The translations under genes were made by a program, and so were the position numbers. From an uncultured Aliarcobacter sp. (GTDB taxonomy: Bacteria; Campylobacterota; Campylobacteria; Campylobacterales; Arcobacteraceae), in contig CAXXLV010000002.1 in NCBI GenBank assembly GCA_963664305.2, positions 128,001-192,000 on the forward strand: 64,000 nt of DNA. Direction: 5' to 3'. The notes under the pieces were generated by a model. The model was not told where the DNA came from and searched no databases. It saw only the letters and a list, made by a program, of their open reading frames with translations. Below, piece by piece: positions 6,919 through 28,806 of this stretch. How positions within the stretch are numbered: the first letter of the stretch is position 1; every line of letters starts with the position of its first letter.

Positions 6919-7479
6919 ATGATTACTACATTACTAAATTATTTGGCAAATAGTAGTGCTATAACTTATATAGTTTTAGCACTATTGTCAACATATATTG
7001 TTATCACTTTCTGGGTTTTCTTTTATAGAAGAAGTATATTAAACGCACTTATCAGTAATGAACAAAAATCCTTAGAAGCATTGACTTCTAGAGAAACAAG
7101 ATTTTCTCCATTATCTGCATTAAATAAATGCTCTAATAACATAACTTCAAAAGAATTATTACATGCATGTGAAATTAATATTATGAAAGATGCAAGTTCA
7201 GGTTTATCATGGTTAGCAATTATTTCTTCTACATCACCATTTATCGGTCTTTTTGGTACGGTAGTTGGTATTCTAGAATCATTTGCTAAATTTGCAAATC
7301 AATCAAAAGTAGCGTTTTCAATTATTGCACCAGCTATTAGTGAAGCGTTAGTTGCTACAGCAGCAGGTATATTAGTGGCAATTTTTGCCTATACTTTCCA
7401 TCAAATTCTCACAAGAAAAGTTTATGAATTAAATGTTTTTCTTAAGGCACAATCACAAATTTTAATTGCTAAAGGGTAA
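6919..7479 (+). CDS. tolQ: MotA/TolQ/ExbB proton channel protein (TolQ)
   Basis: SPFIGLFGTVVGI, APAISEALVATAAG; upstream of tolR/tolB/pal. Confidence 0.88.
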   Translation: MITTLLNYLANSSAITYIVLALLSTYIVITFWVFFYRRSILNALISNEQKSLEALTSRETRFSPLSALNKCSNNITSKELLHACEINIMKDASSGLSWLAIISSTSPFIGLFGTVVGILESFAKFANQSKVAFSIIAPAISEALVATAAGILVAIFAYTFHQILTRKVYELNVFLKAQSQILIAKG

Positions 7480-7483
7480 TAGA

Positions 7484-7873
7484 GTGTATGATCTTAATCA
7501 AAAACCAGATTTAAATATTACTCCTTTAGTAGATATTATGCTAGTTTTACTAGCAATACTTATGGTAACAGCACCTGTTATCGAATTTGAAGAACCGATT
7601 ACTCTTCCAACAGGAAGCAGATCTCAACAAACACAAGATGTTCAAAAAATTGATATTATTATTACAAAAGATAGAATCGTTACACTAAATAAAAATAAAA
7701 TAGAAATAGGAAATTTTGCAGATAGCTTTTTGCAATTTTCAAATGGAAAAGATCAAAATACACCCGTTTATATTCGTGCAGATAAAAGTTTAAAATATGA
7801 TGATATTATTTTTGTTTTAAAATCAGTTAAAGAGGCTGGTTTTTTCAAAGTGGCATTAGTTACAGACGGATAA
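7484..7873 (+). CDS. tolR: ExbD/TolR protein
   Basis: LNITPLVDIMLVLL, IRADK. GTG at 7484 after AAAGGG is a likelier start than 7466. Confidence 0.88.
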   Translation: MYDLNQKPDLNITPLVDIMLVLLAILMVTAPVIEFEEPITLPTGSRSQQTQDVQKIDIIITKDRIVTLNKNKIEIGNFADSFLQFSNGKDQNTPVYIRADKSLKYDDIIFVLKSVKEAGFFKVALVTDG

Positions 7874-7876
7874 TGA

Positions 7877-8602
7877 ATGCAAAATAATTTTTCATTTATA
7901 GTTTCAGGTATAATCGCATTTTCTTTATATATTTGTTTATGTTTCTCTGTACTTTTTTATATTATGAGTCCAGAACAAAATATGATTAATATTACTCCTA
8001 CTTCAACTTCAATTGAACTTGATATGATAGTAGAAAAAGCAGAGAAAAAAATGGTTGAAAGAAAGGTTGAAAAAATTATTGAAGAAAAAGAAGTTGTTGA
8101 AAAACAAACTTCTGCTCAACAAGAAAAGAAACCAGATTTAAAATCATTATTTGCAAATGTTAAAGAAACAGCCAAAACTGTTACAAAAGAAGAAGTTAAT
8201 AATGTTCAAAAATCAATTGATCCTAAAAGATTTAAATCTAAATTTGAAAAAGAAAAGAAATCTTCAAATATTAAGATTGATAGATTGTTAGAAGACGAAA
8301 AAACAGCTACAAATACAAAAAGTACAAATGCAGCAAAAGGTGTTGAAACAGATGAATATTTTGCACAAATTAGTGAGATGTTATCTGCTTGGGTACCAGT
8401 TGGATCTGGATTAAAAGCGGTTGTTTTAATTATGATTGATTTAGAAGGTAGATTTGATTATAGTTTTGTAAAAAAATCAGGTGACAGTACATTTGATACA
8501 TCACTAGAAGCTTTTTTAAGTGAGCAGAAAAATATTGCTTATCCTAAACCAACAAAGGGTAAAGCAGTTAGAATTAATGTTGATTTCAAATCAGAAGGAT
8601 AA
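7877..8602 (+). CDS. TolA/TonB-like energy transducer
   Basis: Single N-terminal TM, Lys/Glu-rich stalk, TonB_C-like end (KSGDSTFD); lies between tolR and tolB. Confidence 0.78.
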   Translation: MQNNFSFIVSGIIAFSLYICLCFSVLFYIMSPEQNMINITPTSTSIELDMIVEKAEKKMVERKVEKIIEEKEVVEKQTSAQQEKKPDLKSLFANVKETAKTVTKEEVNNVQKSIDPKRFKSKFEKEKKSSNIKIDRLLEDEKTATNTKSTNAAKGVETDEYFAQISEMLSAWVPVGSGLKAVVLIMIDLEGRFDYSFVKKSGDSTFDTSLEAFLSEQKNIAYPKPTKGKAVRINVDFKSEG

Positions 8603-8606
8603 AATT

Positions 8607-9878
8607 ATGTTTAGAATATTTTTGTTAATATCAATGATATTAAGTTCAGTTTTTGCAGAAGTAGATGCAAATTTAGAAATTATTAAAAAAGCAAATTCTG
8701 TACCTAAAATATTGGTATCAGTTGCAAGTGATACAATGGAAGTTGAAACTCTTAATAAAATAAAAAAAGGTATAGCTGATGACTTAAATGTTAGTGGTCA
8801 CTTTGAAATCGCAACGATTAATAGTCAAACAGCTTATGATAGTATACCTGATATTTTAAGTTTATCAAATCAAGGTGTAGGATTATTTTTAAATATCTCT
8901 GCAAAAAAAGAAGCTACAGGTGATTTTACACTTATGACTAAACTTTATAATATTGGTGCAAGAGCTTTAATTTTAGAAAAAAATTTCACTACTTCACAAG
9001 AGGATAGATATATATTTTTAGCTCATAAAGCTGCTATTTCTATTAATGATTTCTTTAAAGCTCCAAGTATTTCATGGATGGATAAATTTGTTGTTTTTTC
9101 AACGTATAAAGGGGCTGGTAAAGCTGATATTATGATTGGAGATTATACTTTAACTTATAAGAAAACAGTTGTTACTGGTGGTTTAAATATTTTCCCAAAA
9201 TGGGCAGATAAAGAGCAAAAAACAATTTATTATACATCTTATAACTATAAAAAACCTACATTAGTTAAATTGAATATATATAACAGAAGTAAAGACATAA
9301 TTATGGATTCTGATGGAATGTTAGCTTGTTCAGACGTAAATGAAGATGGAACTAAACTTTTAGTTACTGCATCTCCAACAGGTCAACCTGATATTTTCTT
9401 ATATGACACAAGAACAAGACAAAAAAGTCAAATCACAAGATACAGTGGAATTGATGTTGGTGGACAATTTATAGAAAATGGTTCAAGAATTGTTTTTGTA
9501 TCTGATAGATTAGGAAATCCAAATATTTTTGCACAAGGAATTAATTCTACAGCTGTTGAAAGATTAGTATATCACAGTAACAATAATTCATCTGCAACAG
9601 CACATGAAAATAATATTGTATATAGTAGTAAAGATTCAGATAATGAATTAGGTGGAAAAAGTTTTAATCTATATTTAGTTTCTACTAAAACAGATAGTTT
9701 AAAAAGATTAACTTCAAGTGGTGTTAATCAATTCCCAAAATTCTCTACAGATGGTGAAACTTTATTATTTATAAAAACATATGCTGGAGAGAGTTCAGTT
9801 GGTATTATTAGATTAGATTACAATAAATCTTTCTTATTCCCATTAACAGGTGGAAGAATTCAATCTATTGATTGGTAA
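8607..9878 (+). CDS. tolB: Tol-Pal beta-propeller protein TolB
   Basis: Signal peptide from ATG 8607 (AAGGA SD upstream); PD40-like repeats (FVSDRLGNPNIF, FPKFSTDG). Confidence 0.93.
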   Translation: MFRIFLLISMILSSVFAEVDANLEIIKKANSVPKILVSVASDTMEVETLNKIKKGIADDLNVSGHFEIATINSQTAYDSIPDILSLSNQGVGLFLNISAKKEATGDFTLMTKLYNIGARALILEKNFTTSQEDRYIFLAHKAAISINDFFKAPSISWMDKFVVFSTYKGAGKADIMIGDYTLTYKKTVVTGGLNIFPKWADKEQKTIYYTSYNYKKPTLVKLNIYNRSKDIIMDSDGMLACSDVNEDGTKLLVTASPTGQPDIFLYDTRTRQKSQITRYSGIDVGGQFIENGSRIVFVSDRLGNPNIFAQGINSTAVERLVYHSNNNSSATAHENNIVYSSKDSDNELGGKSFNLYLVSTKTDSLKRLTSSGVNQFPKFSTDGETLLFIKTYAGESSVGIIRLDYNKSFLFPLTGGRIQSIDW

Positions 9879-11115: not shown

Positions 11116-12090
11116 ATGAATAAGTATCTTCTACCTCTATTAGTAGTAACTTCATTAACCGTAGCCGAAGAGGTTTCGGTTTATGGAGCTGGTGGTTCTT
11201 CGGACACTCCTTATGGGCTTAGTTCGACAGAAAAGCATATTATGAAAAACCAGTCAAATATAAGTAATTTATCTTCAAAAATTGGAGATATAAATACTTT
11301 AGTTGAGTCTATTAATAGAAGGTTAGAAGGCTTAGAATCTACATATGAAGGTGATTCTGCAAAATTAAACACAACTTCAAGAAAAGTTGATGAATTGATG
11401 CAAAAAATCGGTGGATCTTCAGATTTAGCTTCTAACAATAACACATCTTCTACAAATCAATCATCAGATCCTCAATTAGCAGAAACTGTTAATAATCTGA
11501 AAACTGCTTTAACTAAATTAACAGCTTTAGTTAATAAAATAAATTCAGAATATGTTTCTTCAACTGAACTTGAAAAAAACATGCAACAGTTTATTACAAG
11601 AGAAGAATTTGAGGCCTTGAAAAAAGCTATGGGTGTTAAAACATCACAAGTAAATCCTACAAAAACTAACGAAAAAAAATCTGCTGATGTAGAAGATAGT
11701 GCTGAAATAAAAAAAACTTTAACAGCGGAAGATAAACCAAAACTTTTATCTGAAGCAAAAAAAGATTTCGATGCAAAGAAGTATGATAGCGCTATACCTA
11801 AATATGAAAAATTAGTTGAAGTTAATTATAAACCTGCTGAAAGTAATTATTATCTAGGTGAAATGTGGTATATAAGAAAAAAATATGATGTTGCAATAAG
11901 TCATTTTAAAAAGTCTGCAATTCTAAATGATAAAGCAGCTTATATGCCAACTTTATTATTGCATAGTGCTATTTCATTTGAAAATACAAAAGATAAAGAT
12001 AATGCAAAAAGTTTCTATTCTACTTTAATAGACCTTTATCCTGACTCAAGTGAAGCAAAAATAGCAAAAAAAAATTTAGCTAAGTTATAA
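11116..12090 (+). CDS. cpoB: CpoB/YbgF-like coiled-coil + TPR periplasmic protein
   Basis: Signal peptide, coiled coil, C-terminal TPRs (YYLGE, LYPDSSEAKIA); directly after pal. Confidence 0.8.
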   Translation: MNKYLLPLLVVTSLTVAEEVSVYGAGGSSDTPYGLSSTEKHIMKNQSNISNLSSKIGDINTLVESINRRLEGLESTYEGDSAKLNTTSRKVDELMQKIGGSSDLASNNNTSSTNQSSDPQLAETVNNLKTALTKLTALVNKINSEYVSSTELEKNMQQFITREEFEALKKAMGVKTSQVNPTKTNEKKSADVEDSAEIKKTLTAEDKPKLLSEAKKDFDAKKYDSAIPKYEKLVEVNYKPAESNYYLGEMWYIRKKYDVAISHFKKSAILNDKAAYMPTLLLHSAISFENTKDKDNAKSFYSTLIDLYPDSSEAKIAKKNLAKL

Positions 12091-12116
12091 TATATAAATA
12101 AAATTAAGGAAAAATA

Positions 12117-12698
12117 ATGTCAAATAAAGTAATAGGTATAGAATATACATTAAAAGATGCAAAAACTGGTGAACAATTAGATTCAAATGTTGGTCAAGCT
12201 CCATTAGAATTTATTTCAGGAAAAGGACAAATTATTCCTGGATTAGAATCTAAATTAGTTGAAATGGCTGCAAATGAAGAAGCTGATGTTTTAGTTGAAG
12301 CTAAAGATGCGTATGGTGAATATAATGATGAAGCTGTACAAACATTACCAAAAGAACAATTTGCTGGTATTGAATTAGTTGAAGGTATGTCATTATATGG
12401 AACAGGTGAACATGGTGAAACTGTACAAGTTGTAGTTAAATCATTTACTGATTCTGATGTAACAATTGATTACAATCACCCAATGGCTGGTAGAACATTA
12501 ATGTTTACAGTTGCTATTTTATCTTTAAGAGATGCAACTGAAGAAGAAGTACAAACTGGTGTTGTTGGTGGAATGGCTGCTATGGGTGGTGGTTGTTGTG
12601 GTGGCGGAGGTCACTCTCATGGTGGAGGTTCTTGTGGAACTGGTCATGATCATGATCATGGACACGGACACTCTCACGGTGGTTGTGGTTGTCACTAA
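12117..12698 (+). CDS. slyD: FKBP-type PPIase SlyD with His/Cys-rich tail
   Basis: GQIIPGLE, DYNHPMAGRTL, tail GGCCGGGGHSH...HDHDHGHGHSHGGCGCH. Confidence 0.96.
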   Translation: MSNKVIGIEYTLKDAKTGEQLDSNVGQAPLEFISGKGQIIPGLESKLVEMAANEEADVLVEAKDAYGEYNDEAVQTLPKEQFAGIELVEGMSLYGTGEHGETVQVVVKSFTDSDVTIDYNHPMAGRTLMFTVAILSLRDATEEEVQTGVVGGMAAMGGGCCGGGGHSHGGGSCGTGHDHDHGHGHSHGGCGCH

Positions 12699-12724
12699 TC
12701 TTTTTTATATAAAAAGTTTTTCTC

Positions 12725-12838: not shown

Positions 12839-13768
12839 ATGAAAAAAGTTGCTTTTATATTTCCAGGACAAGGTAGTCAAACTGTTGGAATGGGAAAAGA
12901 TTTTTTTGAAAATAGTGAAATTGCAAAAGATATGATTTCAAAAGCAAGTGATAGATTAGGTATTGATTTTGAAAAACTTTTATTTGAAGAAAATGAAAAT
13001 TTAGGGAAAACTGAATTTACTCAACCTGCTATTTTACTTGTAAGTTCTATTGCAAATGCAATTTTTAAAGAAAAATTAAATATTACACCTGAATTTGTTT
13101 TAGGTCACTCTTTAGGAGAATTTTCAGCGTTAGTTGCTGCTGGTGCAATTGATTATTTAGATGCTGTTGAATTAGTTCATAAAAGAGGTTTATTTATGAC
13201 TGAGGCTTGTACTGGTGGAGGTGCTGGTATGATGGCATTAGTTGGAATTGATGATGCCACAGTTGAAAAAGTGTGTGCTGAACAAAGAGAACTTGGTAAA
13301 AAAGTATGGCCAGCAAACTACAATATGGATGGACAACTAGTACTTGCAGGTATTAAAGCAGATTTAGAATCTTTAGTTGATGTATTTAAAGGTGCAGGTG
13401 CTAAAAGAGCTATTGTTTTAGATATGTCTGTTGCATCACATTGTGAATTATTAACAAGTGCAGTTGAAAATTTAAAACCATATTTACAAGAGTTTTTAAA
13501 AGATGAGTTTTTACCTGTGATTTCAAATGTAAGTACTCAAGCTTATACAACTAAAGATGAAGCTATTGATTTATTAGCTGCTCAACTTACAAGTCCAGTT
13601 AAATATAAACAATCAATTAAAGCTCATGAAGATAAAGTTGATTTATTTATTGAATTTGGAAATGGAATAGTTTTAAAAGGTTTAAATAAAAAAATCACAG
13701 AAAAACCAACTCTGAATGTTTCTGATATGAAAACATTAGAAGCAGTAATAGGTGAATTAAATGACTAA
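12839..13768 (+). CDS. fabD: Malonyl-CoA:ACP transacylase
   Basis: FPGQGSQ, TQPAIL, GHSLGEF, ASHC. Confidence 0.97.
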   Translation: MKKVAFIFPGQGSQTVGMGKDFFENSEIAKDMISKASDRLGIDFEKLLFEENENLGKTEFTQPAILLVSSIANAIFKEKLNITPEFVLGHSLGEFSALVAAGAIDYLDAVELVHKRGLFMTEACTGGGAGMMALVGIDDATVEKVCAEQRELGKKVWPANYNMDGQLVLAGIKADLESLVDVFKGAGAKRAIVLDMSVASHCELLTSAVENLKPYLQEFLKDEFLPVISNVSTQAYTTKDEAIDLLAAQLTSPVKYKQSIKAHEDKVDLFIEFGNGIVLKGLNKKITEKPTLNVSDMKTLEAVIGELND

Positions 13769-14456
13769 ATTAGCAATTATGGGAGCAATGGAAGAGGAAA
13801 TTGAACCTCTTTTAGCTCATTTTGAAAATGTAAATGTAGTTGAATTTGCAAATAATAAATATTATGAAGTTAAATATAATGGTTTAGAAATTGTAGTTGC
13901 TTATTCAAAAATTGGAAAAGTTTTTGCAAGTTTAACAGCTGCAACAATGATAGAAAAATTTGGTTGTGATACACTTTTATTTTCTGGAGTTGCAGGTGGA
14001 ATTAATCCTGAACTTAAAATCGGTGATTTAATTATTGCAGATAAATTATGTCAACATGATTTAGATATTACAGCATTTGGTCATCCAAATGGATATGTTC
14101 CTGGTGGTAAAGTTTTTGTTGAAACTACAAAAAGCTTAAGAGAAATAGCAATTAAAGTTGCAAATGAAAACAATCTAAAAGTAATTGAAGGAACAATTGC
14201 AACTGGTGATCAGTTTGTTCACTCTACTGAAAGAAAAGATTTTATTCAATCTACTTTTAATGCAGATGCTTTAGAAATGGAAGGTGCAAGTGTTGCTGTT
14301 GTTTGTGATGCTTTAAATGTTCCATTCTTTATATTAAGAGCTATCTCTGATACTGCTGATATGGATGCTGGATTTGATTTTGATGAATTCTTAAAATCAA
14401 GTGCTAAAAATTCTGCAGATTATTTAATTAAGATTGTAAAAGAATTAATTAAATAA
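13761..14456 (+). CDS. mtnN: 5'-methylthioadenosine/S-adenosylhomocysteine nucleosidase
   Basis: IMGAMEEE, GVAGG, TGDQF, EMEGA, RAISD. Confidence 0.96.
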   Translation: MTKLAIMGAMEEEIEPLLAHFENVNVVEFANNKYYEVKYNGLEIVVAYSKIGKVFASLTAATMIEKFGCDTLLFSGVAGGINPELKIGDLIIADKLCQHDLDITAFGHPNGYVPGGKVFVETTKSLREIAIKVANENNLKVIEGTIATGDQFVHSTERKDFIQSTFNADALEMEGASVAVVCDALNVPFFILRAISDTADMDAGFDFDEFLKSSAKNSADYLIKIVKELIK

Positions 14457-16097: not shown

Positions 16098-17222
16098 ATG
16101 TTTAATAAAGAAGGAATACCATTTTTTATTATAGTTATACCTTTTTTATCAATATTATTTGTATCTTTCCTTTCAATCTCATACTATTTAAAACTATCAA
16201 ATGAAACTTATCAAACTGAAATAAATGAATATAAAAGACTTCATTTAAATAAATTAAGTGATACACAAATTGTTAATACATTTTTAGAAATAAAAATCAA
16301 AGAGCATGAAAAAGAAGAAAAAAAATTTAAAAAATTTTTACTTACTGCAACAGCTGTAATTTTAACTTTTATGGTACTTTTTACTTTTTTAATGTTATCA
16401 ATTATAAAAGATGTTATAAAAAAATATAAATTACAAGTTCAAAATAGAGAAAATGCTCTTGAAAGTTTAAATGAAAATTTATCTTTAAAAGTAAAACAAG
16501 GAATTGAAGAGGCTAAACAAAAAGATAGAAAAATTTTAGAACAAGCAAAACTTGCAAGAATTGGTTCTATGATTAGTATGATTGCTCATCAATGGCGACA
16601 ACCTTTAAGTCAATTATCTGGAATTTTGATGGAGTTGGAAACTACAACAAGATTTAAAAAAGTAGATAATGATTATATTTTAAATGCTATTGATAAAAGT
16701 GATAAAATGATTGAATTTATGTCAAATACAATAGATGATTTTAGAAACTTCTATAAACCAGACAAGAAAAAAGAAGACTTTTATGTTTCTGATACTTGTA
16801 AAAAAGCCATCAATATTATTGATGCGACTTTAGAAAATCTTGGAATAAATCTGATTTTAGATATAAAAGAAGATAAAAAGATTTTTGGTTATCCAACAGA
16901 ATTTTCTCAAGTTATCTTAAATATTATAAGTAATGCAAAAGATGTTTTAATTGAAAAAAATATAAAAAATCCAAAGATAGGGATAAATATTGAAACAAAA
17001 GGTATTTTATCAATAATTACTATAAAAGATAATGCAGGTGGAATTGAAGAAAAAAATTTAGAGTTGATATTTGACCCATATTATAGTACTAAAGATTCTT
17101 CAAAAGGGACTGGGCTTGGTCTTTATATTTCAAAATTGATTATTGAGCGAAATATGGGTGGAGAGTTAAGCGTATCAAATGACAGTGAAGGTGCTGTTTT
17201 TAAAATAGTTGTAGCAGGATAA
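16098..17222 (+). CDS. Sensor histidine kinase (2 TM, short periplasmic loop)
   Basis: IAHQWRQPL H-box, NAKD, DNAGGI, GTGLGL. Confidence 0.95.
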   Translation: MFNKEGIPFFIIVIPFLSILFVSFLSISYYLKLSNETYQTEINEYKRLHLNKLSDTQIVNTFLEIKIKEHEKEEKKFKKFLLTATAVILTFMVLFTFLMLSIIKDVIKKYKLQVQNRENALESLNENLSLKVKQGIEEAKQKDRKILEQAKLARIGSMISMIAHQWRQPLSQLSGILMELETTTRFKKVDNDYILNAIDKSDKMIEFMSNTIDDFRNFYKPDKKKEDFYVSDTCKKAINIIDATLENLGINLILDIKEDKKIFGYPTEFSQVILNIISNAKDVLIEKNIKNPKIGINIETKGILSIITIKDNAGGIEEKNLELIFDPYYSTKDSSKGTGLGLYISKLIIERNMGGELSVSNDSEGAVFKIVVAG

Positions 17223-20480: not shown

Positions 20481-20503
20481 GAGTTAGAAAATCTAACTCT
20501 TAA
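20477..20503. terminator. Bidirectional terminator between the LUD gene and ferritin
   Basis: TTAAGAGTTAGA-AAA-TCTAACTCTTAA includes both stop codons. Confidence 0.75.
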
Positions 20504-21012
20504 GCTTTTAGTGTTGGGTCAACAAATACTCTTGTAGCCAATTCTTGGTCAATTACATAAAGACCATAACCATTATCTCCAATAAGTTTTATCTTATCAA
20601 TAATAGTGTTTAAAGTTGCCTCTTCTTCTACTTGTTCTGTTACATACCATTGAAGCATATTGTATGTTGCATGGTCTTTATTTTTCATAGTTAAATCACT
20701 AAGTTCATTTAGATATGAACTCATTGAAATTTCATGAACAAGAGCTTTTTCAAAAGCATCTAAAATAGATTCAAATTCAACATTAACTTTTTTAATTTCG
20801 GGTAAGTCAATTTTAACTTGATGACTCTCTAAATATTTAAACAATTTCATTGCATGGGCAAGTTCTTCTTGATACTGAACTAAAAACCAATTTGCAGATC
20901 CAGCTAGTCCTATTTTAGAAGCATAAGCAGACATTCCTAAATATATATAAGAAGATTGGAATTCTCTATTTAACTGTATAATTAACGCATTTGCAACTTC
21001 ATTTTTTAGCAT
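20500..21012 (-). CDS. ftnA: Non-heme ferritin
   Basis: NREFQSSYIYLGM, QEELAHA, LQWYVTEQVEEE. Confidence 0.93.
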   Translation of the reverse strand: MLKNEVANALIIQLNREFQSSYIYLGMSAYASKIGLAGSANWFLVQYQEELAHAMKLFKYLESHQVKIDLPEIKKVNVEFESILDAFEKALVHEISMSSYLNELSDLTMKNKDHATYNMLQWYVTEQVEEEATLNTIIDKIKLIGDNGYGLYVIDQELATRVFVDPTLKA

Positions 21013-22711: not shown

Positions 22712-22759
22712 CTAAAATCTACAAATAAGCCTAAAATAGATAAAATCCAATTTCAAAAT

Positions 22760-22969
22760 TTATCAAGTGAATTTTTTTATTCATGGGAAATAGGTGAAAA
22801 TCCTATACTGCCCCCGCAACGGTAATCGCATATATAATAAAATTTTTATTATGCCAATTTTTTAAAACCACTGTCATTTTGATGGGAAGGTAAAAATTGG
22901 TTTGAAAAAGTATGCTAAGTCCGGAGACCGACTTGATAGATAAAATGCAAATCAGGCGGGGTGACCTGA
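22760..22969 (+). ncRNA. Cobalamin (AdoCbl-class) riboswitch
   Basis: P1 TTATCAAGT/ACTTGATAG; GGGAA-TAGGTGAAAATCCTA; CTGCCCCCGCAACGGTAA; CCACTG...GGGAAGG; B12 box AAGTCCGGAGACC; downstream TCAGG-CGGGGTGA-CCTGA hairpin complementary to CCCCG (kissing loop). Confidence 0.96.
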
Positions 22970-23049
22970 AAAAAGCCATAAATTTATTAATAGTTTATTC
23001 TTCAAACCCTAAATGATTCTTGTATTAATTTTTATTAATAGGAAGTTTC

Positions 23050-26000
23050 ATGCTTTTATTTCGACATTTTTTAGTGTTGTTTTTTATATTTTTATTTAGT
23101 ACAAATTTATTTGCTAAAGAAAATAAAACAATTTTTTCCATAGTTTCAGATAGGTCAGCAATAACTTTAAATAGTGGTGCAAATACATATCTAAAAAATT
23201 CAAATGATAAAATTATCATACGAACAGTGAGTCAAGTATCTTTGATGAATGATGAGGAGTTGGATAACTATTTAAAAAATTCAGATGTAGTTCTTTTATG
23301 TGCAGTTTTTGGTGATGTAGTTGATAGATTATTAGCACGAAAATATGAAGCTTCACAACTTAGAATTTCTCTTCAAGGAGATAGAAGGCTTCTTAGTTTA
23401 AATAATGATTTCTTAGGAAATTCTTATAGTGATAATATAGATACTATTCTTGAAAAAGATAAAGAAAATCTAGGTTATATAAATTTTTTAGAGAAAAAAC
23501 AAAAAGAGTTTTCTTCTTATGCTTTTTATTTACAAGCAAGAGCTTATTGGGATAATAGAGGAAATGAAAATATCTCAAATCTTTTCTCTTTTTTATCAAA
23601 TCCAAATCTACAAAAAAACTCATGGCCAAAAGTTGTTGAATTAAAATCTATAAGATATTTTTTAGATGCAGATGATTCTAAAACATATTTTGATGTGGAT
23701 GACGTAATCAAAAAAATAGATTCTTCAAAAGATATTTTATTTGTTTTAGATAATGATAGAGCAGATAGTTTAAATGAGTGGAAAATACATGAAGAGTTAG
23801 TAAAAAAATCAAATTTTCAAGTAATATCTATCTTATCTTCTTGGGGAAAATCAAGTTTTGAAGCAGTTAAAAGTCTTGAAAATATTGTTTCAAAATTAGA
23901 TAAAAATCAAGGATTTTCAATTATTTCTTTACATGACTTTGTAATTGGAAGTGGTTTAGGTAAAGATGAAGTAAGTAGTGTTTTAGAAAGATTAAATGTA
24001 CCAGTTTTAAAAGGTCTTAGAGTTTTAGATTTATCATATTTAAACTATTCATTATCAAGTGAAGGATTACAAAAAAATTCTGTTCATTATAGAGTTTCAA
24101 TGCCAGAACTTCAGGGAATTGGACAAGTTCATATTCTTTCTTTAAATGAGGATTATATAACTGATGAAAAAACAGGAGTTACTCTTTTTTCTGTAAAAAT
24201 TTTAGATGATGAAATAAAAAATATTATTGAAAAAGCAAATAATTGGATAAAACTAAAAAAGAAAAATAATAAAGATAAAAAAATTGCCATCATTTACTAT
24301 AACCATCCTCCAGGACGACATAATATTGGAGCTGATAATCTAAATGTACCAAAATCACTTTTTAATATCTTAACTTCTTTAAAAGCACAAGGTTATGATG
24401 TTGGGACTTTGCCTGCAAATGATGAGGAGTTATTAAAAATTCTTCAAGAAAAAGCTGTAAATTTACCAAATGATAAAAAAGCATTAAAACAAATGAGCCC
24501 AAATATAAATAAAGTTGATGCAACTGAGTATAAAAATTGGTTCAAAACTTTACCAAATTATATTCAAGAAGAGATGCAAGATGGACCATTGGCTTTACTT
24601 CATGTAGAGATAAGAAATTTTTTAACAGCTGAAATTAAAACAATATCTTCTACAAACAAATCTTTAGCTTATAGTTCAATGAAAGATTATATGCATAAAA
24701 CTATGGATAATCTTCATCATGCAATGGATGGAGTAAGAAGCGAAAGCAGACAAAGAGCTGTAAATTTACTAGCACAGTTAAGAGAAGAGTATGAAAATAT
24801 TTTAACTTTATCTCAAGAAGAAAAAGAGTTTTCATTTGAATCTATGGATAAACTTAAAAAAGCTGTTATTGATTTAGGAATTGAAGGGATAAAAGGTTGG
24901 GGTGAAGCACCCGGAAATGTGATGGTTTATGAAGATAAACTTTTACTTCCAAGTGTTGAGTTTGGAAATATTCTTTTAGCACCACAACCACCTCGTGGTT
25001 GGGAATTAAATGAAGAGTTACTTCATGCAAACTTATCTTTTCCTCCAACTCATCAATATTTAGCTTTTTATCATTTTATAAAAGATAGTTTTAAAGTTGA
25101 TGCTGTTGTTCATGTGGGAAGACACTCAACTTATGAGTTTTTACCAAGAAAAAGTGTAGGGCTTACTTCAAAAGATTATCCATATTTGATGATTGGAAAT
25201 ATGCCAAGTATTTATCCATATATTGTTGATGGAGTAGGTGAAGGTATTCAAGCAAAAAGAAGAGGTCAGGCTATAATGATTGACCATTTAACGCCACCTT
25301 TATCAATTACAAAACTTTATGATGATTTATTGCAAATAAGACAGCTAATTGAAAGTGCAGAATCTGCAACAGATGAAATAGTAAGAAAGAACTCTATAAA
25401 AAAGATTAAAGAATCTATAGATAAAGCAAATCTAAAAGATGAACTTATTAATAGTATGGATGAAGAGTTAAAAGTTCGTGGTATTGGATTTGATGAGGTT
25501 GATGATGAATTTTTACTTCATGAAGTAGGGCATTATTTAACTCATCTACAAGAAGAGTTTATGCCTTTAGGACTTCATACTTTTGGACAAGATTGGAATG
25601 ATGATGCAGTTAATATTATGCTTAAATCAATGGGTGAAGAGAATACTAAAGAGGTAAAAGCAAATCTTATAAAATCTCCAAAAAATGAGATGAACTCTTT
25701 ACTAAATGCATTAAATGGTGGATATATAATTGCAGGAAAAGGAAATGACCCAATAAGAACTAAAGAGGCACTTCCAACTGGAAAAAACTTTTATGCACTA
25801 GATGGAAGTTTGATACCAAGTAGTATTGGATATGAAATTGGAGTGAAGTTAGCTCAAAAGGTGCGTGAAAATAAAAATTATGATATCAGAAAAAAAGAAG
25901 CGATAATTTTATGGGCATCAGATACAGTTAGAGATGAAGGCGCGATGATAGCTTTTGGACTTGATTTATTGGGGATTAAACCTGTGTGGAATAGTAGAGG

Positions 26001-27402
26001 AATTTTGCAAGGATTAGAACTTTTACCTTTAGATGAAAATAGAGTAAGAAGATATGATGTGATTTTTACTGGTTCAGGATTGTTTAGAGATTTATACTCT
26101 TCACAATTGGCTTTACTTGATAAAGCAGTTTTGATGTCTTTAGATGCTAGTTACAATGAGATAGTTTCAAAATATCCTGCTTTAACGCTTGCGTTAAATA
26201 AAGCTTTAGAACCTCTTGGAGATTTAAAAAAAGCTGGAAATGAATCTTTAGAGACAAATAGTGTGGCTTTAAATTGGGTAGATGAAGCAAGAGAAATTTT
26301 AAAACAAAATCCAAATATAGATGCAAATGAGTTAGGAAAAATATCTAGTAAAAGAGTTTTTGCAACAGCACCTGGTGCTTATGGAGCTGGAATAAATAGA
26401 TTAGCAGAACGTTCAAGTGCATGGAATGATAGAAAAGAGCTAGCAGATGTTTTCATAAAAAGAATGGGATATTCATACTCAGAAGATGGTTATGCACAGT
26501 TATCAGTTGAAAGTTTTGAAAGACAACTTCAAAAAGTTGAAAATACATATTTAGGAAGAGCAAGTAATTTATATGGATTAATAGATAACAATGATACTTT
26601 TGACTATCTTGGAGGATTGAATTTAGCTATTGAAAAAGTAACTGGAAAACAACCAAATAGTTTTGTAATAGATAATTCAAATGCAAATAATCTAAAAATC
26701 ACACCACTTGAAACAGCACTTTTAAGTGAGTTAAGAGGAAGATTTTTAAATCCTCAATGGATAAAACCACTTATGAATGAAGGATATAGTGGTGCAAGAA
26801 CCATGGGAAGTGAGTTTGTTGAGTATTTATGGGGATGGCAAGTTACAAGTCCTGAGATTATAAAAGATTGGGTTTGGGAAGAGGTTAAAGCTGTTTATAT
26901 TGATGATAAATTGAATCTAAAACTAGATGAGTTTTTATCTTCAAATTATCAAGTGCAAGTTCAAACAAATATGTTAGCTGTTATGCTTGTAGCTATTCAA
27001 AAAGATTTTTGGAAAGCAGATGAAAAAACACAAAAAGAGCTTTCTGAAAAATTTGCAAAAAATATAATAGAACATGGAATTCCAGGAAGTGGGCATACAC
27101 ATGCAAATCATCCGATATATGATTTTGTAAAATCAAAAATATCTAAAGAAGAAGCTAATAAATTAGAAGAAGTTTTAAGTGAAAGTCGAATGGAAAAAGA
27201 GAAAAAAGATAGTGTAACTTCTATTCAAGAGATAAAACTAGAAAATCAGAAAAATAAAAATGAAGAAAAAACAGAAGAGTTAAGTGAGAGTAAAAATAGT
27301 AATAAAGATGATTCTTATATGAAATATTTATTGGGTATTGCTTTTTTAATTTTACTTGTTGGTTTAGGTAAATCAATATTTTTTAATAAGATAAAAGGAT
27401 AA
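23050..27402 (+). CDS. CobN/ChlH-family chelatase large subunit, exported and C-terminally membrane anchored (BtuS/HmuS-like)
   Basis: YYNHPPG, PQPPRG, PPTHQYLAFY, HVGRHSTYEFLP, QAKRRG..IDHLTPP, LPTGKNFY, RFLNPQWI; N-terminal signal peptide and C-terminal TM YLLGIAFLILLVGLG. Confidence 0.9.
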   Translation: MLLFRHFLVLFFIFLFSTNLFAKENKTIFSIVSDRSAITLNSGANTYLKNSNDKIIIRTVSQVSLMNDEELDNYLKNSDVVLLCAVFGDVVDRLLARKYEASQLRISLQGDRRLLSLNNDFLGNSYSDNIDTILEKDKENLGYINFLEKKQKEFSSYAFYLQARAYWDNRGNENISNLFSFLSNPNLQKNSWPKVVELKSIRYFLDADDSKTYFDVDDVIKKIDSSKDILFVLDNDRADSLNEWKIHEELVKKSNFQVISILSSWGKSSFEAVKSLENIVSKLDKNQGFSIISLHDFVIGSGLGKDEVSSVLERLNVPVLKGLRVLDLSYLNYSLSSEGLQKNSVHYRVSMPELQGIGQVHILSLNEDYITDEKTGVTLFSVKILDDEIKNIIEKANNWIKLKKKNNKDKKIAIIYYNHPPGRHNIGADNLNVPKSLFNILTSLKAQGYDVGTLPANDEELLKILQEKAVNLPNDKKALKQMSPNINKVDATEYKNWFKTLPNYIQEEMQDGPLALLHVEIRNFLTAEIKTISSTNKSLAYSSMKDYMHKTMDNLHHAMDGVRSESRQRAVNLLAQLREEYENILTLSQEEKEFSFESMDKLKKAVIDLGIEGIKGWGEAPGNVMVYEDKLLLPSVEFGNILLAPQPPRGWELNEELLHANLSFPPTHQYLAFYHFIKDSFKVDAVVHVGRHSTYEFLPRKSVGLTSKDYPYLMIGNMPSIYPYIVDGVGEGIQAKRRGQAIMIDHLTPPLSITKLYDDLLQIRQLIESAESATDEIVRKNSIKKIKESIDKANLKDELINSMDEELKVRGIGFDEVDDEFLLHEVGHYLTHLQEEFMPLGLHTFGQDWNDDAVNIMLKSMGEENTKEVKANLIKSPKNEMNSLLNALNGGYIIAGKGNDPIRTKEALPTGKNFYALDGSLIPSSIGYEIGVKLAQKVRENKNYDIRKKEAIILWASDTVRDEGAMIAFGLDLLGIKPVWNSRGILQGLELLPLDENRVRRYDVIFTGSGLFRDLYSSQLALLDKAVLMSLDASYNEIVSKYPALTLALNKALEPLGDLKKAGNESLETNSVALNWVDEAREILKQNPNIDANELGKISSKRVFATAPGAYGAGINRLAERSSAWNDRKELADVFIKRMGYSYSEDGYAQLSVESFERQLQKVENTYLGRASNLYGLIDNNDTFDYLGGLNLAIEKVTGKQPNSFVIDNSNANNLKITPLETALLSELRGRFLNPQWIKPLMNEGYSGARTMGSEFVEYLWGWQVTSPEIIKDWVWEEVKAVYIDDKLNLKLDEFLSSNYQVQVQTNMLAVMLVAIQKDFWKADEKTQKELSEKFAKNIIEHGIPGSGHTHANHPIYDFVKSKISKEEANKLEEVLSESRMEKEKKDSVTSIQEIKLENQKNKNEEKTEELSESKNSNKDDSYMKYLLGIAFLILLVGLGKSIFFNKIKG

Positions 27403-27404
27403 AA

Positions 27405-27854
27405 ATGTTTTCATCAATTTCAGTTGGTTTAATGCACCAAATCTCATCACTTCTTTTAGAGCCTGTCTCTTGGGCTTTGCTTTTTTTTGTAGTTTTTTCA
27501 CTTTATGAAATAGGAATAACTATAGGTGAAAGAGTTATCGAAATCAAAAGATTGATAAATACTAAAGATAAAACTTTGGTTTTAAATGTTGCAAAAAAAA
27601 GAATAGAAAGAGCAGATTTTATCACAAGACTTGCTCCCATGCTTGGACTTATGGGAACTTTAATTCCTTTAGGTCCTGGGCTTGCAGCACTAGGTGATGG
27701 TGATGTTAAAATACTAAGTACTGCAATGAGTGTTGCTTTTGATACAACAGTTTTAGGATTACTTTGTGGAATGGTAGGTTTTGTAATAGCAAGACTAAGA
27801 AGAAGATGGTATGACAAAGCTTTAACTTTAATGGAGAGTGAAGATGAAAAATAG
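27405..27854 (+). CDS. Short MotA/TolQ/ExbB-family proton channel protein
   Basis: APMLGLMGTLIPLGPGL, AFDTTVLGL; about 3 TMs. Confidence 0.9.
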   Translation: MFSSISVGLMHQISSLLLEPVSWALLFFVVFSLYEIGITIGERVIEIKRLINTKDKTLVLNVAKKRIERADFITRLAPMLGLMGTLIPLGPGLAALGDGDVKILSTAMSVAFDTTVLGLLCGMVGFVIARLRRRWYDKALTLMESEDEK

Positions 27855-28152
27855 ATTTTCAAGCGAACATTTTTCTAAAGAAGATGATGAACCTCTTGGT
27901 CCTTTAGCAAATTTGGTTGATATCATTTTAGTTTTTGCTTGTGGTTTAATAGCTGCTTTAGTTGCTCTTAGTCCTAATTTACAAGAGCATTTTAAAGTGT
28001 CAACAGATACAAAAGTTATAACTCAAGGAAAAGAGTTGGTTGAAATTCCAAAAGAAATAAAAGAAAATATGGAAACAAAAGAGGGATATAAATCTTTAGG
28101 ACAAGTTTATAAAGACCCAAAAACTGGGAAATTGATATTAATTTCTGAATAA
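27844..28152 (+). CDS. DUF2149 family protein (ExbD/MotB-like single TM with Asp)
   Basis: DEPLGPLANLVDIILVFACGL, LGQVYKDPKTGKLILI. ATG 27844 follows GGAG; GTG 27838 is an alternative start. Confidence 0.85.
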   Translation: MKNRFSSEHFSKEDDEPLGPLANLVDIILVFACGLIAALVALSPNLQEHFKVSTDTKVITQGKELVEIPKEIKENMETKEGYKSLGQVYKDPKTGKLILISE

Positions 28153-28230: not shown

Positions 28231-28806
28231 ATGAAACATGAATTAATGACTTTACCTTATGCTTTAGATGCCTTAGAACCATTGATGTCAAAAGAAACTT
28301 TAGAGTTTCATTATGGGAAACATCACCAAACTTATGTAAATAATTTGAATAATTTAATTGCTGGTACAAAATTTGAAGATTTATCTTTAGTAAATATCAT
28401 TTTAGAATCAGATGGTGGAACTTTTAATAATGCAGCACAAGTTTATAACCACGACTTTTTTTGGAATGGATTAACTCCAACTCAAGGTGCAATTCCATCA
28501 ACTGTTGAAGAAGCTTTAACAAAAACTTTTGGAAGTGTTGATAAATTTAAAGAAGAGTTTACAGCAAAAGCTGTAGGACATTTTGGTTCTGGTTGGGCTT
28601 GGTTAGTTCAAGATGAAAATCAAAATTTAAAAATAGTTACAACTGCAAATGCACAAAATCCTCTAACAGAAAATCTAAAACCTATTTTAGTATGTGATGT
28701 TTGGGAACATGCATATTACATAGATGTAAGAAATGCAAGACCTAAGTTTTTAGAAAACTTCTGGAAACTTGTAAATTGGGATTTTGTAGCACAAAATCTT
28801 GGATAA
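28231..28806 (+). CDS. sodB: Fe superoxide dismutase
   Basis: HYGKHH, NNAAQVYNHDFFW (Fe-type), DVWEHAYY. Confidence 0.97.
   Translation: MKHELMTLPYALDALEPLMSKETLEFHYGKHHQTYVNNLNNLIAGTKFEDLSLVNIILESDGGTFNNAAQVYNHDFFWNGLTPTQGAIPSTVEEALTKTFGSVDKFKEEFTAKAVGHFGSGWAWLVQDENQNLKIVTTANAQNPLTENLKPILVCDVWEHAYYIDVRNARPKFLENFWKLVNWDFVAQNLG

Follow-up and report, generated by a model that had tools for sequence, protein, structure and literature searches.

In the part of PMC11681262 that treats the hmuYRSTUV operons of Bacteroidota, hmuS is annotated as CobN, hmuU as MotA/TolQ/ExbB and hmuV as DUF2149. HmuS of B. thetaiotaomicron was demonstrated in 2025 to be a membrane-bound, NADH-dependent heme de-chelatase and its structure was solved by cryo-electron microscopy (PMC12583661, in the sections on the enzyme), and HmuU and HmuV have been assigned to powering the receptor HmuR in the corresponding passages of PMC12583661 and PMC10100974. 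Related clusters have been linked to vitamin B12. The name 'BtuS' denotes a CobN-related protein type (Rodionov 2003, as cited in PMC6460266), some Hmu-like operons of B. fragilis carry a cobalamin riboswitch and are 'perhaps involved in the metabolism of cobalamin' (PMC10100974), and the cobN-exbB-exbD-tonB cluster of G. lovleyi pSZ77, which lacks cobS/T, is listed with 'exact biochemical role unknown' (PMC3403914). Here we analyse a 64,000-nucleotide stretch of an uncultured Aliarcobacter sp. genome (hereafter the window; contig CAXXLV010000002.1, positions 128,001 to 192,000), in which a cobalamin riboswitch is followed by genes for a CobN-like protein, an ExbB-like protein and a DUF2149 protein, together called the triad. 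This module is widespread and has already been noticed in print as a B12-linked cousin of HmuS-HmuU-HmuV. Very probably it is an envelope module of the BtuS or HmuS-HmuU-HmuV kind, and a role in corrinoid salvage is likely; what reaction it would perform there is taken up below.

The triad resembles HmuS-HmuU-HmuV (PDB 9d26/9p4s) in that MotA/ExbB and DUF2149 genes follow one for a CobN/ChlH-family protein of about 1450 aa, membrane-bound in HmuS and predicted to be so here, with no AAA+ partner. A sequence-only reading of this DNA had named the kinship, and the annotation of hmuU as MotA/ExbB and of hmuV as DUF2149 in PMC11681262, as far as given there, bears it out. Unlike the hmu operon, the window triad is under B12 and not iron control and has no hmuY, hmuR or hmuT; the locus holds S-, U- and V-like genes only, not the complete hmuYRSTUV set. 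The genes that accompany the triad and the hosts that carry it also point to corrinoids, not heme. With the BtuS, B12-riboswitch Hmu-like and pSZ77 clusters, as those sources describe them, the triad shares a CobN homologue without cobS/T, ExbB/ExbD-like genes and a link to B12, whereas those clusters include TonB-dependent receptors, plus TonB in G. lovleyi, and the window operon is a bare triad. The large protein is CobN-related, distinct from CobN and ChlH, predicted to be exported and membrane-attached, and linked to B12, as is the BtuS type in its second-hand definition via PMC6460266. Judged by title, our literature search found no work on this module in Campylobacterota and no functional test of the B12-linked branch. 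The sequence-only reading nevertheless overstated the novelty of the module, as B12-linked Hmu-like and cobN-exbB-exbD clusters appear in parts of PMC10100974, PMC3403914 and PMC6460266.

A cobalamin riboswitch heads three tightly coupled genes

The riboswitch aptamer (22748..22950, + strand) matched Rfam RF00174 over the complete model (1-189) with 83 bits (E 6e-19), against a curated gathering score of 31.5, and therefore belongs to this riboswitch family. It was the only Rfam family within the 64-kb window and the only RF00174 match in the whole genome (2.78 Mb, 2 contigs, 99.96% complete), all searches of the host's own genome (G000) covering these 2.78 Mb except 8,000 bases of contig C1. 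The start codon of the CobN-like gene lies approximately 100 bases downstream of the riboswitch, and the three open reading frames (ORFs) are co-directional. A gap of 2 nt separates the CobN-like from the ExbB-like gene, which the DUF2149 gene overlaps by 17 nt when read from its GTG; an alternative ATG start at 27844 would reduce the overlap to 11 nt and has a better-placed GGAG. The full-length RF00174 match, the 2-nt gap and the overlap that follows it confirm the riboswitch-headed, tightly coupled arrangement first read from the letters.

This arrangement was conserved in related genomes. A scan with one genome per species turned up 528 relatives, and the best 80 loci were kept for all counts out of 80 given here. 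Homologues were 63-96% identical in Arcobacteraceae and approximately 45-54% identical in marine Gammaproteobacteria and others. The triad was complete and in the same gene order in 73/80 loci, the other 7 stopping inside or just after the large gene. When all flanking ORFs were clustered, only the three triad genes emerged as conserved neighbours, and this neighbourhood extends across Campylobacterota, Gammaproteobacteria, Betaproteobacteria and Nitrospinae. A cobalamin riboswitch lay on the same strand within 3.2 kb upstream in 70/80 loci, 62 of them called by a two-motif scan (L072 and L102 set by hand) and 8 by Rfam; 3/3 motif calls that were rechecked by Rfam held. Among the 18 motif-negative loci, 8 had an Rfam riboswitch, 1 had a riboswitch 7 kb upstream and 9 had none. 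That B12 control points to corrinoids and not to heme or zinc, as had been argued from the window, gains weight from this retention (70/80) and from the cob genes that flank the triad in 15/80 loci.

In a FastTree phylogeny of 73 full-length proteins, the 12 Arcobacteraceae formed one clade (support 1.0) that was nested among gammaproteobacterial sequences with an SH-like support of 0.969, under a midpoint or a Nitrospinae root (L027-L037 versus L038-L106). DUF2149 was patchily distributed, in 25/184 Arcobacteraceae genomes and in 5/43 of the host's own genus. The nested clade and this patchy distribution are signs that the module has moved horizontally between Arcobacteraceae and Gammaproteobacteria of marine origin.

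The CobN-like protein is a predicted envelope member of the chelatase superfamily

The first gene (23050..27402, + strand) encodes a 1450-aa protein of the CobN/ChlH/HmuS family that is predicted to be exported and C-terminally anchored. It matched PF02514 (CobN-Mg_chel) with 806.6 bits against a cut-off of 24.5 (E 4.9e-242), which places it in the class I chelatase large-subunit superfamily. By hydropathy it has two hydrophobic segments only, at residues 2-20 and 1427-1445. The signal-peptide-like N terminus (residues 1-22, MLLFRHFLVLFFIFLFSTNLFA; 23050..23115, + strand) is built like a Sec signal, with a short basic n-region, a hydrophobic core and ...NLFA before KE; the printed N termini of homologues likewise have a hydrophobic core and an AxA-like motif approximately 8-15 residues before a conserved VSDRS motif. 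At the other end, an E/K/S-rich low-complexity linker of approximately 50 residues, delimited by composition (about residues 1376-1426; 27175..27327, + strand), leads into a predicted transmembrane helix (residues 1427-1445, hydropathy 2.36; 27328..27384, + strand) and a basic tail, NKIKG. The C termini of 72/72 full-length homologues from related loci were built in this way, each with a linker of polar or acidic character, a hydrophobic helix and a tail rich in R and K. These topology calls use hydropathy and family conservation rather than a dedicated signal-peptide predictor.

Because of the positive-inside rule, the tail would be cytoplasmic and the body periplasmic, and this predicted topology agrees with the one predicted for BtuS1/2 in the passage of PMC6460266 that deals with them. 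Hydropathy and the 72 homologues thus support, at the level of prediction, the earlier picture of an exported, C-terminally anchored CobN homologue with a charged linker. HmuS differs in having an N-terminal anchor, according to its authors' description, whereas the triad family combines a signal-like N terminus with a C-terminal anchor. Canonical CobN is soluble and cytoplasmic, which the predicted signal-like N terminus and the C-terminal helix with its basic tail do not match.

We placed the protein within the superfamily by PDB sequence scores, region by region. Over the whole protein, the best hit was HmuS (9d26; 391.7 bits, E 6.5e-116), followed by ChlH (4zhj; 335 bits, E 8.4e-99) and CobN (9uk9; 319.7 bits, E 3.3e-94). 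The order changed within the protein: in the domain III active-site stretch CobN (111.6 bits) scored above HmuS (91.3) and ChlH (85.5), and in the domain V/VI stretch HmuS scored 93.6 bits and CobN 72.7. The first 290 residues had no PDB sequence match and the first 420 had no match to HmuS at E <= 0.01, so that the head region is unlike that of HmuS in sequence.

Residues that are catalytic in the relatives are kept. The motif H688-V-G-R-H692 (H-x-G-x-H) aligns with HFGTH of HmuS and ChlH and with HMGKH of CobN; H692 falls on H554 of CobN and on the essential H538 of HmuS, and E731 falls on E593 of CobN (CobN H554, E593 and D1100 as named in the available part of bioRxiv 10.64898/2026.07.21.739949, and HmuS H538 in that of PMC12583661). 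H692, E731 and the DNND-DYLGG motif were invariant across a 14-sequence alignment. The DNND motif occupies positions 1179-1182 (D1179-N-N-D1182-..-D-Y-L-G-G), where CobN has D-S-D-D, HmuS S-L-D-H and ChlH D-V-S-H. At the second axial position the triad family has Asp1182, as CobN does, whereas HmuS and ChlH have His; Asn1181 is invariant in the triad family, and the same position is Asp in CobN and HmuS. By offset, CobN D1100 falls on N1181 or D1182 of this motif.

The marks of HmuS are missing. The window protein has LIDNNDTFDYLGG where HmuS has LSLDHxxEFMGG, and Asp1182 aligns with His-1209. HmuS carries a Met-rich insertion in domain IV, with 21 Met in about 120 residues (PMC12583661, in the description of that domain); the CobN-like protein has no such insertion, with 28 Met in 1450 residues and at most 6 in any 80. 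With regard to the HmuS head and neck heme site (Met-79, and His-254 in HGR), sequence alignment found no HGR motif, and apart from M1 no Met was invariant within residues 2-350 of the 14-sequence alignment. HmuS is therefore alike as the best PDB sequence hit, with its essential His conserved as H692, and unlike in the insertion, in the Asp for His-1209 and in a head that is unrelated in sequence. CobNST (7c6o, 9uk9) shares the superfamily, H554/E593 as H692/E731 and an Asp in fourth place of DSDD/DNND, and in some loci the triad gene stands between cobB and cobO, like steps of the aerobic pathway. By contrast, CobN works in the cytoplasm, where the AAA+ ring of CobS drives it via CobT (bioRxiv 10.64898/2026.07.21.739949). 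The triad has predicted export signals, a proton-channel-like pair and no CobS, and an Asn where CobN D1100 probably lies. By these sequence comparisons, the CobN-like protein is a superfamily member that is neither HmuS nor canonical CobN.

The ExbB-like and DUF2149 proteins resemble a small stator unit

Class I chelatases normally need an ATPase motor, and the periplasm has no ATP. The second gene of the triad (27405..27854, + strand) encodes a 149-aa protein of the MotA/TolQ/ExbB family (PF01618 MotA_ExbB; 40.7 bits against a cut-off of 22.9, E 2.4e-10) with three transmembrane helices predicted by hydropathy and charge. Its loop 41-75 has a net charge of +5, which gives the ExbB/TolQ topology in miniature, and LGLMGTLIPLGPGL and AFDTT..GL were invariant among 46 sequences of the ExbB-like family. 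A profile of this family found MotA only in the PDB (E 0.058). The third gene (27838..28152, + strand) encodes a DUF2149 protein of 104 aa from GTG, or 102 aa from the ATG at 27844; PF09919 was its only Pfam family (46.8 bits against a cut-off of 27.1, E 3.7e-12). It represents a low-scoring DUF2149 subtype (40-54 bits), a second subtype scoring 93-108 bits. Its Asp28 (ANLVD), near the cytoplasmic helix end, was invariant in 48/48 aligned homologues, and it thus shares a feature of ExbD and TolR, a single N-terminal transmembrane helix that carries a conserved Asp towards its cytoplasmic end. The two Pfam matches and the invariance of D28 uphold the sequence-only assignment of an ExbB-like gene beside a DUF2149 protein with an Asp at the start of its transmembrane helix (NLVD).

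An AlphaFold2 (AF2) model of the DUF2149 protein had a helix at 24-44 and strands at 90-92 and 99-101, which give a hairpin-ended tail (predicted local distance difference test 68.7, predicted template modelling score (pTM) 0.28). A DUF2149 profile search of the PDB gave no ExbD or TolR hit, the best hits being unrelated (E 0.43). When DUF2149 was compared by hhalign with 20 ExbD sequences from the same bacterial family, the probability was 5.7% (E 0.0066) over 22 columns, and these 22 columns do align D28 of DUF2149 with the ExbD Asp. The pair is similar to ExbB-ExbD, TolQ-TolR and MotA-MotB in that a PF01618 protein with three transmembrane helices and the motifs LGL.GT and TT..GL is followed by a single-pass protein with an Asp. 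It differs from ExbD-type stators in that the ExbB-like protein has only 149 aa with a short cytoplasmic loop and DUF2149 lacks an ExbD-type periplasmic domain, and the presumed output here is an enzyme, not TonB, TolA or a rotor.

Three observations favour a motor that would be dedicated to the enzyme: the pair appears translationally coupled to the large gene, the triad is constant with or without a receptor gene nearby, and DUF2149 is present in 24/24 Arcobacteraceae genomes whose CobN-family gene reaches E <= 1e-90. Proton flux could then stand in for the ATPase, as the linkage of these genes suggests.

The host appears to lack corrin ring synthesis and an AAA+ chelatase partner

Searches of the host genome found no CbiC/CobH and only 3 TP_methylase genes, and for this reason the host is, as judged from its gene content, without corrin ring synthesis. 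Canonical CobN acts in hosts that make hydrogenobyrinic acid a,c-diamide by the aerobic ring pathway, which is not the case here. The host does have CbiB, CobQ (CbiP), CobD, CobS (the ribazoletransferase), CobU and CobT together in one cluster, and its btuB-btuF-btuD-btuC genes adjoin the cobyrinic acid a,c-diamide synthase gene cbiA/cobB (G000:C2:660281-667080; L021:5240-12079). Rfam found no cobalamin riboswitch at this btuB-F-D-C/cbiA locus; the genome's single cobalamin riboswitch sits on the triad and not on the B12 importer. Three host ORFs had B12-binding matches, one MetH-like and two others. This make-up of CbiA, CbiP and late genes corresponds to the incomplete 'Aba' variant of Rodionov et al. 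2019, which the pertinent part of PMC6593275 reads as cobyrinic acid salvage.

No second CobN-family gene was found in the genome. A ChlI/ChlD-type gene was not found either, PF01078 detecting only a 514-aa ORF that we took as ComM/YifB-like from its size and full Mg_chelatase domain. The chelatase CobS (TIGR01650) had no match, and chelatase CobT was not searched separately; within that limit, the genome offers neither the cognate CobS/CobT nor the ChlI/ChlD partners that accompany canonical CobN. The lack of an AAA+ partner, noted at first for the window, therefore extends to the genome for CobS and the ChlI/D type (CobT not having been searched separately). In the wider genome survey that the sequence-only reading had called for, btuB, late cob genes and a MetH-like ORF were found, and the chelatase CobS and CbiC/CobH were not. 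A corrinoid adenosyltransferase of the CobA/BtuR or PduO type was not found in the host genome. Three ORFs of the host cob cluster belong to no Pfam or NCBIfam family (L020:6008-6433, 11734-12714 and 13438-14046), and one of them may be an unrecognised pathway enzyme.

The triad concentrates in genomes with CbiA and without CbiC

We compared the occurrence of the window-type module with that of CbiA, which marks the later pathway, and CbiC, which marks ring synthesis. Among 184 Arcobacteraceae genomes, the module was present in 14/35 CbiA+CbiC-, 1/48 CbiA+CbiC+ and 2/101 CbiA- genomes. In a gammaproteobacterial family (121 genomes sampled), chosen because it was known to hold triad carriers, the counts were 7/18, 0/1 and 2/102, respectively, excluding a 50-aa DUF2149 fragment in G278. 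Outside the CbiA+CbiC- class, the pooled counts were 3/149 for Arcobacteraceae and 2/103 for the gammaproteobacterial family. The triad thus concentrates in CbiA+CbiC- genomes in two bacterial families. The marker used for the Arcobacteraceae was the low-scoring DUF2149 subtype, and an adjacent CobN-like gene was confirmed in 16/17 cases; the 14 CbiA+CbiC- carriers span five genera, and 5/6 module-holding genera have such carriers. Fifty further triad genomes, which represent 50 of the 69 non-Arcobacteraceae loci and include seven that are also in the 121-genome sample (G210, G213, G217, G222, G223, G228 and one of the same family), comprised 31 CbiA+CbiC- genomes, 8 with both genes and 11 with neither. 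CbiC was lacking in 16/17 triad genomes of Arcobacteraceae and in 42/50 elsewhere.

Five CbiC-positive triad genomes were checked. The triad gene was the sole CobN-family gene in 4/5, and CobS was found in 0/5. One of them, the de novo producer G184, carries a cbi cluster of the anaerobic type that includes a CbiX-like chelatase of its own. On this ground we discarded the idea that de novo producers use the triad as the chelatase of their ring pathway.

Operon company points in the same biosynthetic direction. The triad adjoins cbiA in 10/80 loci and cobO/btuR in 11/80, and in 15/80 at least one cob gene is found within 8 kb. In Colwellia-type loci the order is riboswitch, 201-aa ORF, cbiA, CobN-like, ExbB-like, DUF2149 and cobO, with cbiB, cobC and cobD divergent; in a Nitrospinae metagenome-assembled genome it is receptor, CobN-like, ExbB-like, DUF2149, cbiA and a 184-aa ORF that clustered with cobO. 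The cbiA gene is therefore upstream in the former and downstream in the latter. TonB-dependent receptor genes occurred within 8 kb in 23/80 loci, and 57/80 had none nearby.

A possible periplasmic chelatase and its alternatives

The host, seemingly without ring synthesis, keeps the pathway from CbiA onward together with BtuBFCD, and this is why we read the module as serving corrinoid salvage rather than de novo synthesis. A B12-starvation switch, a catalytic-looking chelatase and ring-less, CbiA-onward hosts would be fitted best by a module that makes an early corrinoid usable. In the mechanism we propose, the riboswitch would switch the operon on when adenosylcobalamin is scarce. A class-I-chelatase-family enzyme would be exported by Sec and held by its C-terminal helix at the outer face of the inner membrane. 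A ring of ExbB-like subunits around the DUF2149 helix with its proton-binding Asp would make up a stator-like proton channel that serves this enzyme alone and takes the place of the AAA+ motor of cytoplasmic chelatases (CobS/CobT, ChlI/ChlD). In the periplasm, an early corrinoid that has been imported without metal (hydrogenobyrinic-acid type) would receive Co(II), and BtuFCD would import the metallated product for CbiA, adenosylation, CbiP, CbiB and the nucleotide-loop enzymes. The periplasmic location, the contact between motor and enzyme, the coupling to proton motive force, the substrate and the direction of the reaction are parts that we infer. Taken whole, a chelatase assisted by proton motive force that serves early-corrinoid salvage in the periplasm, cobalt insertion included, is a tentative proposal that is somewhat more apt to fail than to hold, and the insertion of cobalt into a metal-free corrinoid is itself possible but doubtful. 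Rather unlikely is its boldest form, a periplasmic cobaltochelatase driven by proton motive force on metal-free corrins of the hydrogenobyrinic-acid type. This form would add a third B12 route to de novo synthesis and cobinamide or cobamide salvage and would be the first stator-powered class I chelatase, with the C-terminal anchor and linker in TonB's part.

Several points weigh against this proposal. CbiA and CobO are cytoplasmic, so gene order does not give reaction order; the substrate of canonical CobN is the a,c-diamide and not hydrogenobyrinic acid; and a natural supply of free, metal-free corrinoids rests on old literature. The active site is probably not that of a plain CobN, because CobN D1100 seems to align, by offset, with the invariant Asn1181. 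Homology between DUF2149 and ExbD is undetectable by profile methods, and the AF2 model is weak (pTM 0.28). The route has a step with no assigned adenosyltransferase in the host's own genome. The module is missing from 21/35 and 11/18 CbiA+CbiC- genomes in the two families, and 11/50 triad genomes have no CbiA, so that CbiA and the module are not strictly bound to each other. Because of their kinship, the genomes do not count as independent samples, and the sets of 50 and 121 are of unknown completeness. Finally, the 'Aba' reading, in the form published in part of PMC6593275, is one of salvage of cobalt-containing cobyrinic acid, for which no chelatase is needed.

Among the alternatives, it is unlikely that the enzyme works as a de-chelatase, which would take cobalt (or another metal) out of an imported tetrapyrrole in the periplasm, much as HmuS does with heme, and leave the cell to use either the freed metal or the empty ring. 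Removal needs no ATP; of the relatives with a solved structure, the heme de-chelatase HmuS (9d26, E 6.5e-116) scores highest over the whole sequence, its essential H538 is kept as H692, and HmuS has the same envelope placement and two partner genes (PMC11681262 and PMC12583661, in their sections on the system). Free cobalt, however, would be useless for B12 in ring-less hosts (16/17 Arcobacteraceae and 42/50 others are without CbiC), and a B12-starvation switch would turn on the destruction of potential B12 precursors. The Met-rich insertion, His-1209, the invariant head Met and a head sequence match are all missing, and fusion with cbiA and cobO places the operon among biosynthetic genes. The sequence-only reading had left removal, insertion and remodelling open; this choice is now narrower: with most hosts unable to make a corrin ring, removal as a source of cobalt is disfavoured. 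A similarly improbable, though serious, rival is a TonB-like shuttle for cobyrinic acid with no enzymatic role in vivo: the protein would capture charged early corrinoids from the periplasm or from an outer-membrane receptor, and the motor would drive their release to BtuF. CobN binds its corrinoid tightly, the membrane anchor, long flexible linker and stator-like pair resemble the TonB arrangement, and receptor genes lie within 8 kb in 23/80 loci. The shuttle also fits the 'cobyrinic acid salvage' reading of CbiA-positive, ring-less genomes in the relevant part of PMC6593275, without calling on metal-free corrinoids. Yet the invariance of H692, E731 and DNND-DYLGG in 14 sequences is costly to explain for a mere binder, 57/80 loci have no receptor gene nearby, a TonB-box-binding domain is not evident, and BtuF is already present for a periplasmic hand-off.

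The operon could also combine two unrelated functions, the ExbB-like and DUF2149 pair energising TonB and a B12 receptor and the CobN-like protein working without it, as the assignment of HmuU and HmuV to HmuR in parts of PMC12583661 and PMC10100974 and the frequency of B12-regulated uptake genes would allow. Against this, the host already has canonical ExbD genes, four in all with one in the window, to which the pair comes as an extra; the pair follows the large gene (2-nt gap, overlap) in 73/80 loci regardless of any receptor, the 24/24 co-occurrence of CobN-family gene and DUF2149 in Arcobacteraceae has to be explained, DUF2149 (104 aa) has no ExbD-sized periplasmic domain, and the host's own btuB locus lies elsewhere, without a riboswitch; we consider this explanation quite improbable. 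Least credible, to the point of being very hard to defend, is an ordinary cytoplasmic cobaltochelatase CobN whose partners were missed. The database name of the relatives, 'cobaltochelatase subunit CobN', and the domain III region, which scored best with CobN (111.6 bits versus 91.3 for HmuS), speak for it. The signal-like N terminus and the C-terminal anchor with its basic tail are, however, conserved family-wide, no CobS and no ChlI/D type was found in the host's genome, and a ring-less host would, for that reason, have no hydrogenobyrinic acid diamide of its own.

If a periplasmic chelatase of the proposed kind were confirmed, many marine and sediment bacteria now listed as auxotrophic for B12, or as 'cobyrinic acid salvagers', could complete the vitamin from ring precursors without cobalt, which would be leaked by producers using the aerobic pathway, and this would change models of how B12 and cobalt are exchanged in waters poor in cobalt. 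It would also show how an ATPase-dependent chelatase type works in a compartment without ATP. The same question of powering stands for the heme de-chelatase HmuS, whose HmuU and HmuV are assigned to energising the receptor. The CbiA-positive, ring-negative hosts and the cbiA and cobO fusions narrow the substrate question and give a concrete list of substrates. Even with the reverse reaction, the triad would be a tractable three-gene system in culturable Arcobacteraceae.

Further features of the locus and its relatives

Several smaller elements surround the riboswitch. A promoter-like candidate (TCTACA, 17 nt, TAAAAT; 22718..22746, + strand) matched the consensus at 9/12 positions in our scan and stops 2 nt before the riboswitch; the region has 21 such sites against a shuffle mean of 32.6, that is fewer, and the site is a candidate only. 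Directly 3' of the aptamer, a hairpin (22952..22969, + strand) was read from the sequence, and the minimum-free-energy fold contains its stem. The hairpin loop (CGGGG) and CCCCG in the conserved aptamer loop CUGCCCCCGCAAC are complementary, which would make the hairpin a candidate kissing-loop partner. We presume this role by analogy with cobalamin riboswitch structures and treat it as a candidate. The fold of the leader was no better than that of shuffled sequences (z -0.37), and no + strand terminator was found between the aptamer and the start codon. The CobN-like gene has an AGGAAG ribosome-binding site (23040..23045, + strand), read from the sequence 4 nt upstream of the ATG; some of its bases are paired in the minimum-free-energy fold, although this pairing is not significant. 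Several related loci have two cobalamin riboswitches around the triad, some of them divergent and back to back (L096:5525-6015; L101:7607-7789 and 13245-13430; L098:7719-7871 and 16738-16916; L049/L053 at approximately 7193-7316 on the - strand).

The immediate neighbours of the triad are an upstream ORF without a Pfam family and, downstream, sodB, which follows after 78 nt and a promoter-like site. This Fe/Mn superoxide dismutase gene occupies 28231-28806 (+ strand), and a ferritin gene lies upstream of the triad at 20500-21012 (- strand); the ferritin and sodB synteny is kept in the nearest Arcobacteraceae loci only. Elsewhere in the window, positions 6919-9878 hold an ExbB/TolQ-like ORF (6919-7479), an ExbD/TolR ORF (7466-7873; PF02472 match at G000:C2:135502-135864) and two further ORFs, probably a Tol-Pal-type cluster unrelated to the triad.

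The 201-aa ORF that comes first after the riboswitch in Colwellia-type riboswitch-cbiA-triad-cobO operons (L057:5779-6384, with counterparts in 9 loci) looks membrane-embedded by eye and has no Pfam or NCBIfam family. It is unrelated to a 202-aa ORF of the host cob cluster, which also has no family in either database.

The second DUF2149 subtype (93-108 bits) occurred in the Arcobacteraceae genomes G053, G091, G101, G152, G159 and G165-G167 and in approximately 30/121 genomes of the family of G213. Its partner is a shorter CobN-like protein of approximately 1375-1405 aa that matched the PF02514 profile in two long pieces. We take PA1922-PA1925 of P. aeruginosa, presumably a receptor, CobN-like, ExbB-like and ExbD-like set induced by zinc starvation, to be the same kind of triad. 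It would differ from the window triad in being zinc-regulated and receptor-linked, and is probably nearer the second, higher-scoring DUF2149 type, which may be a receptor-linked, PA1923-like form of the module.

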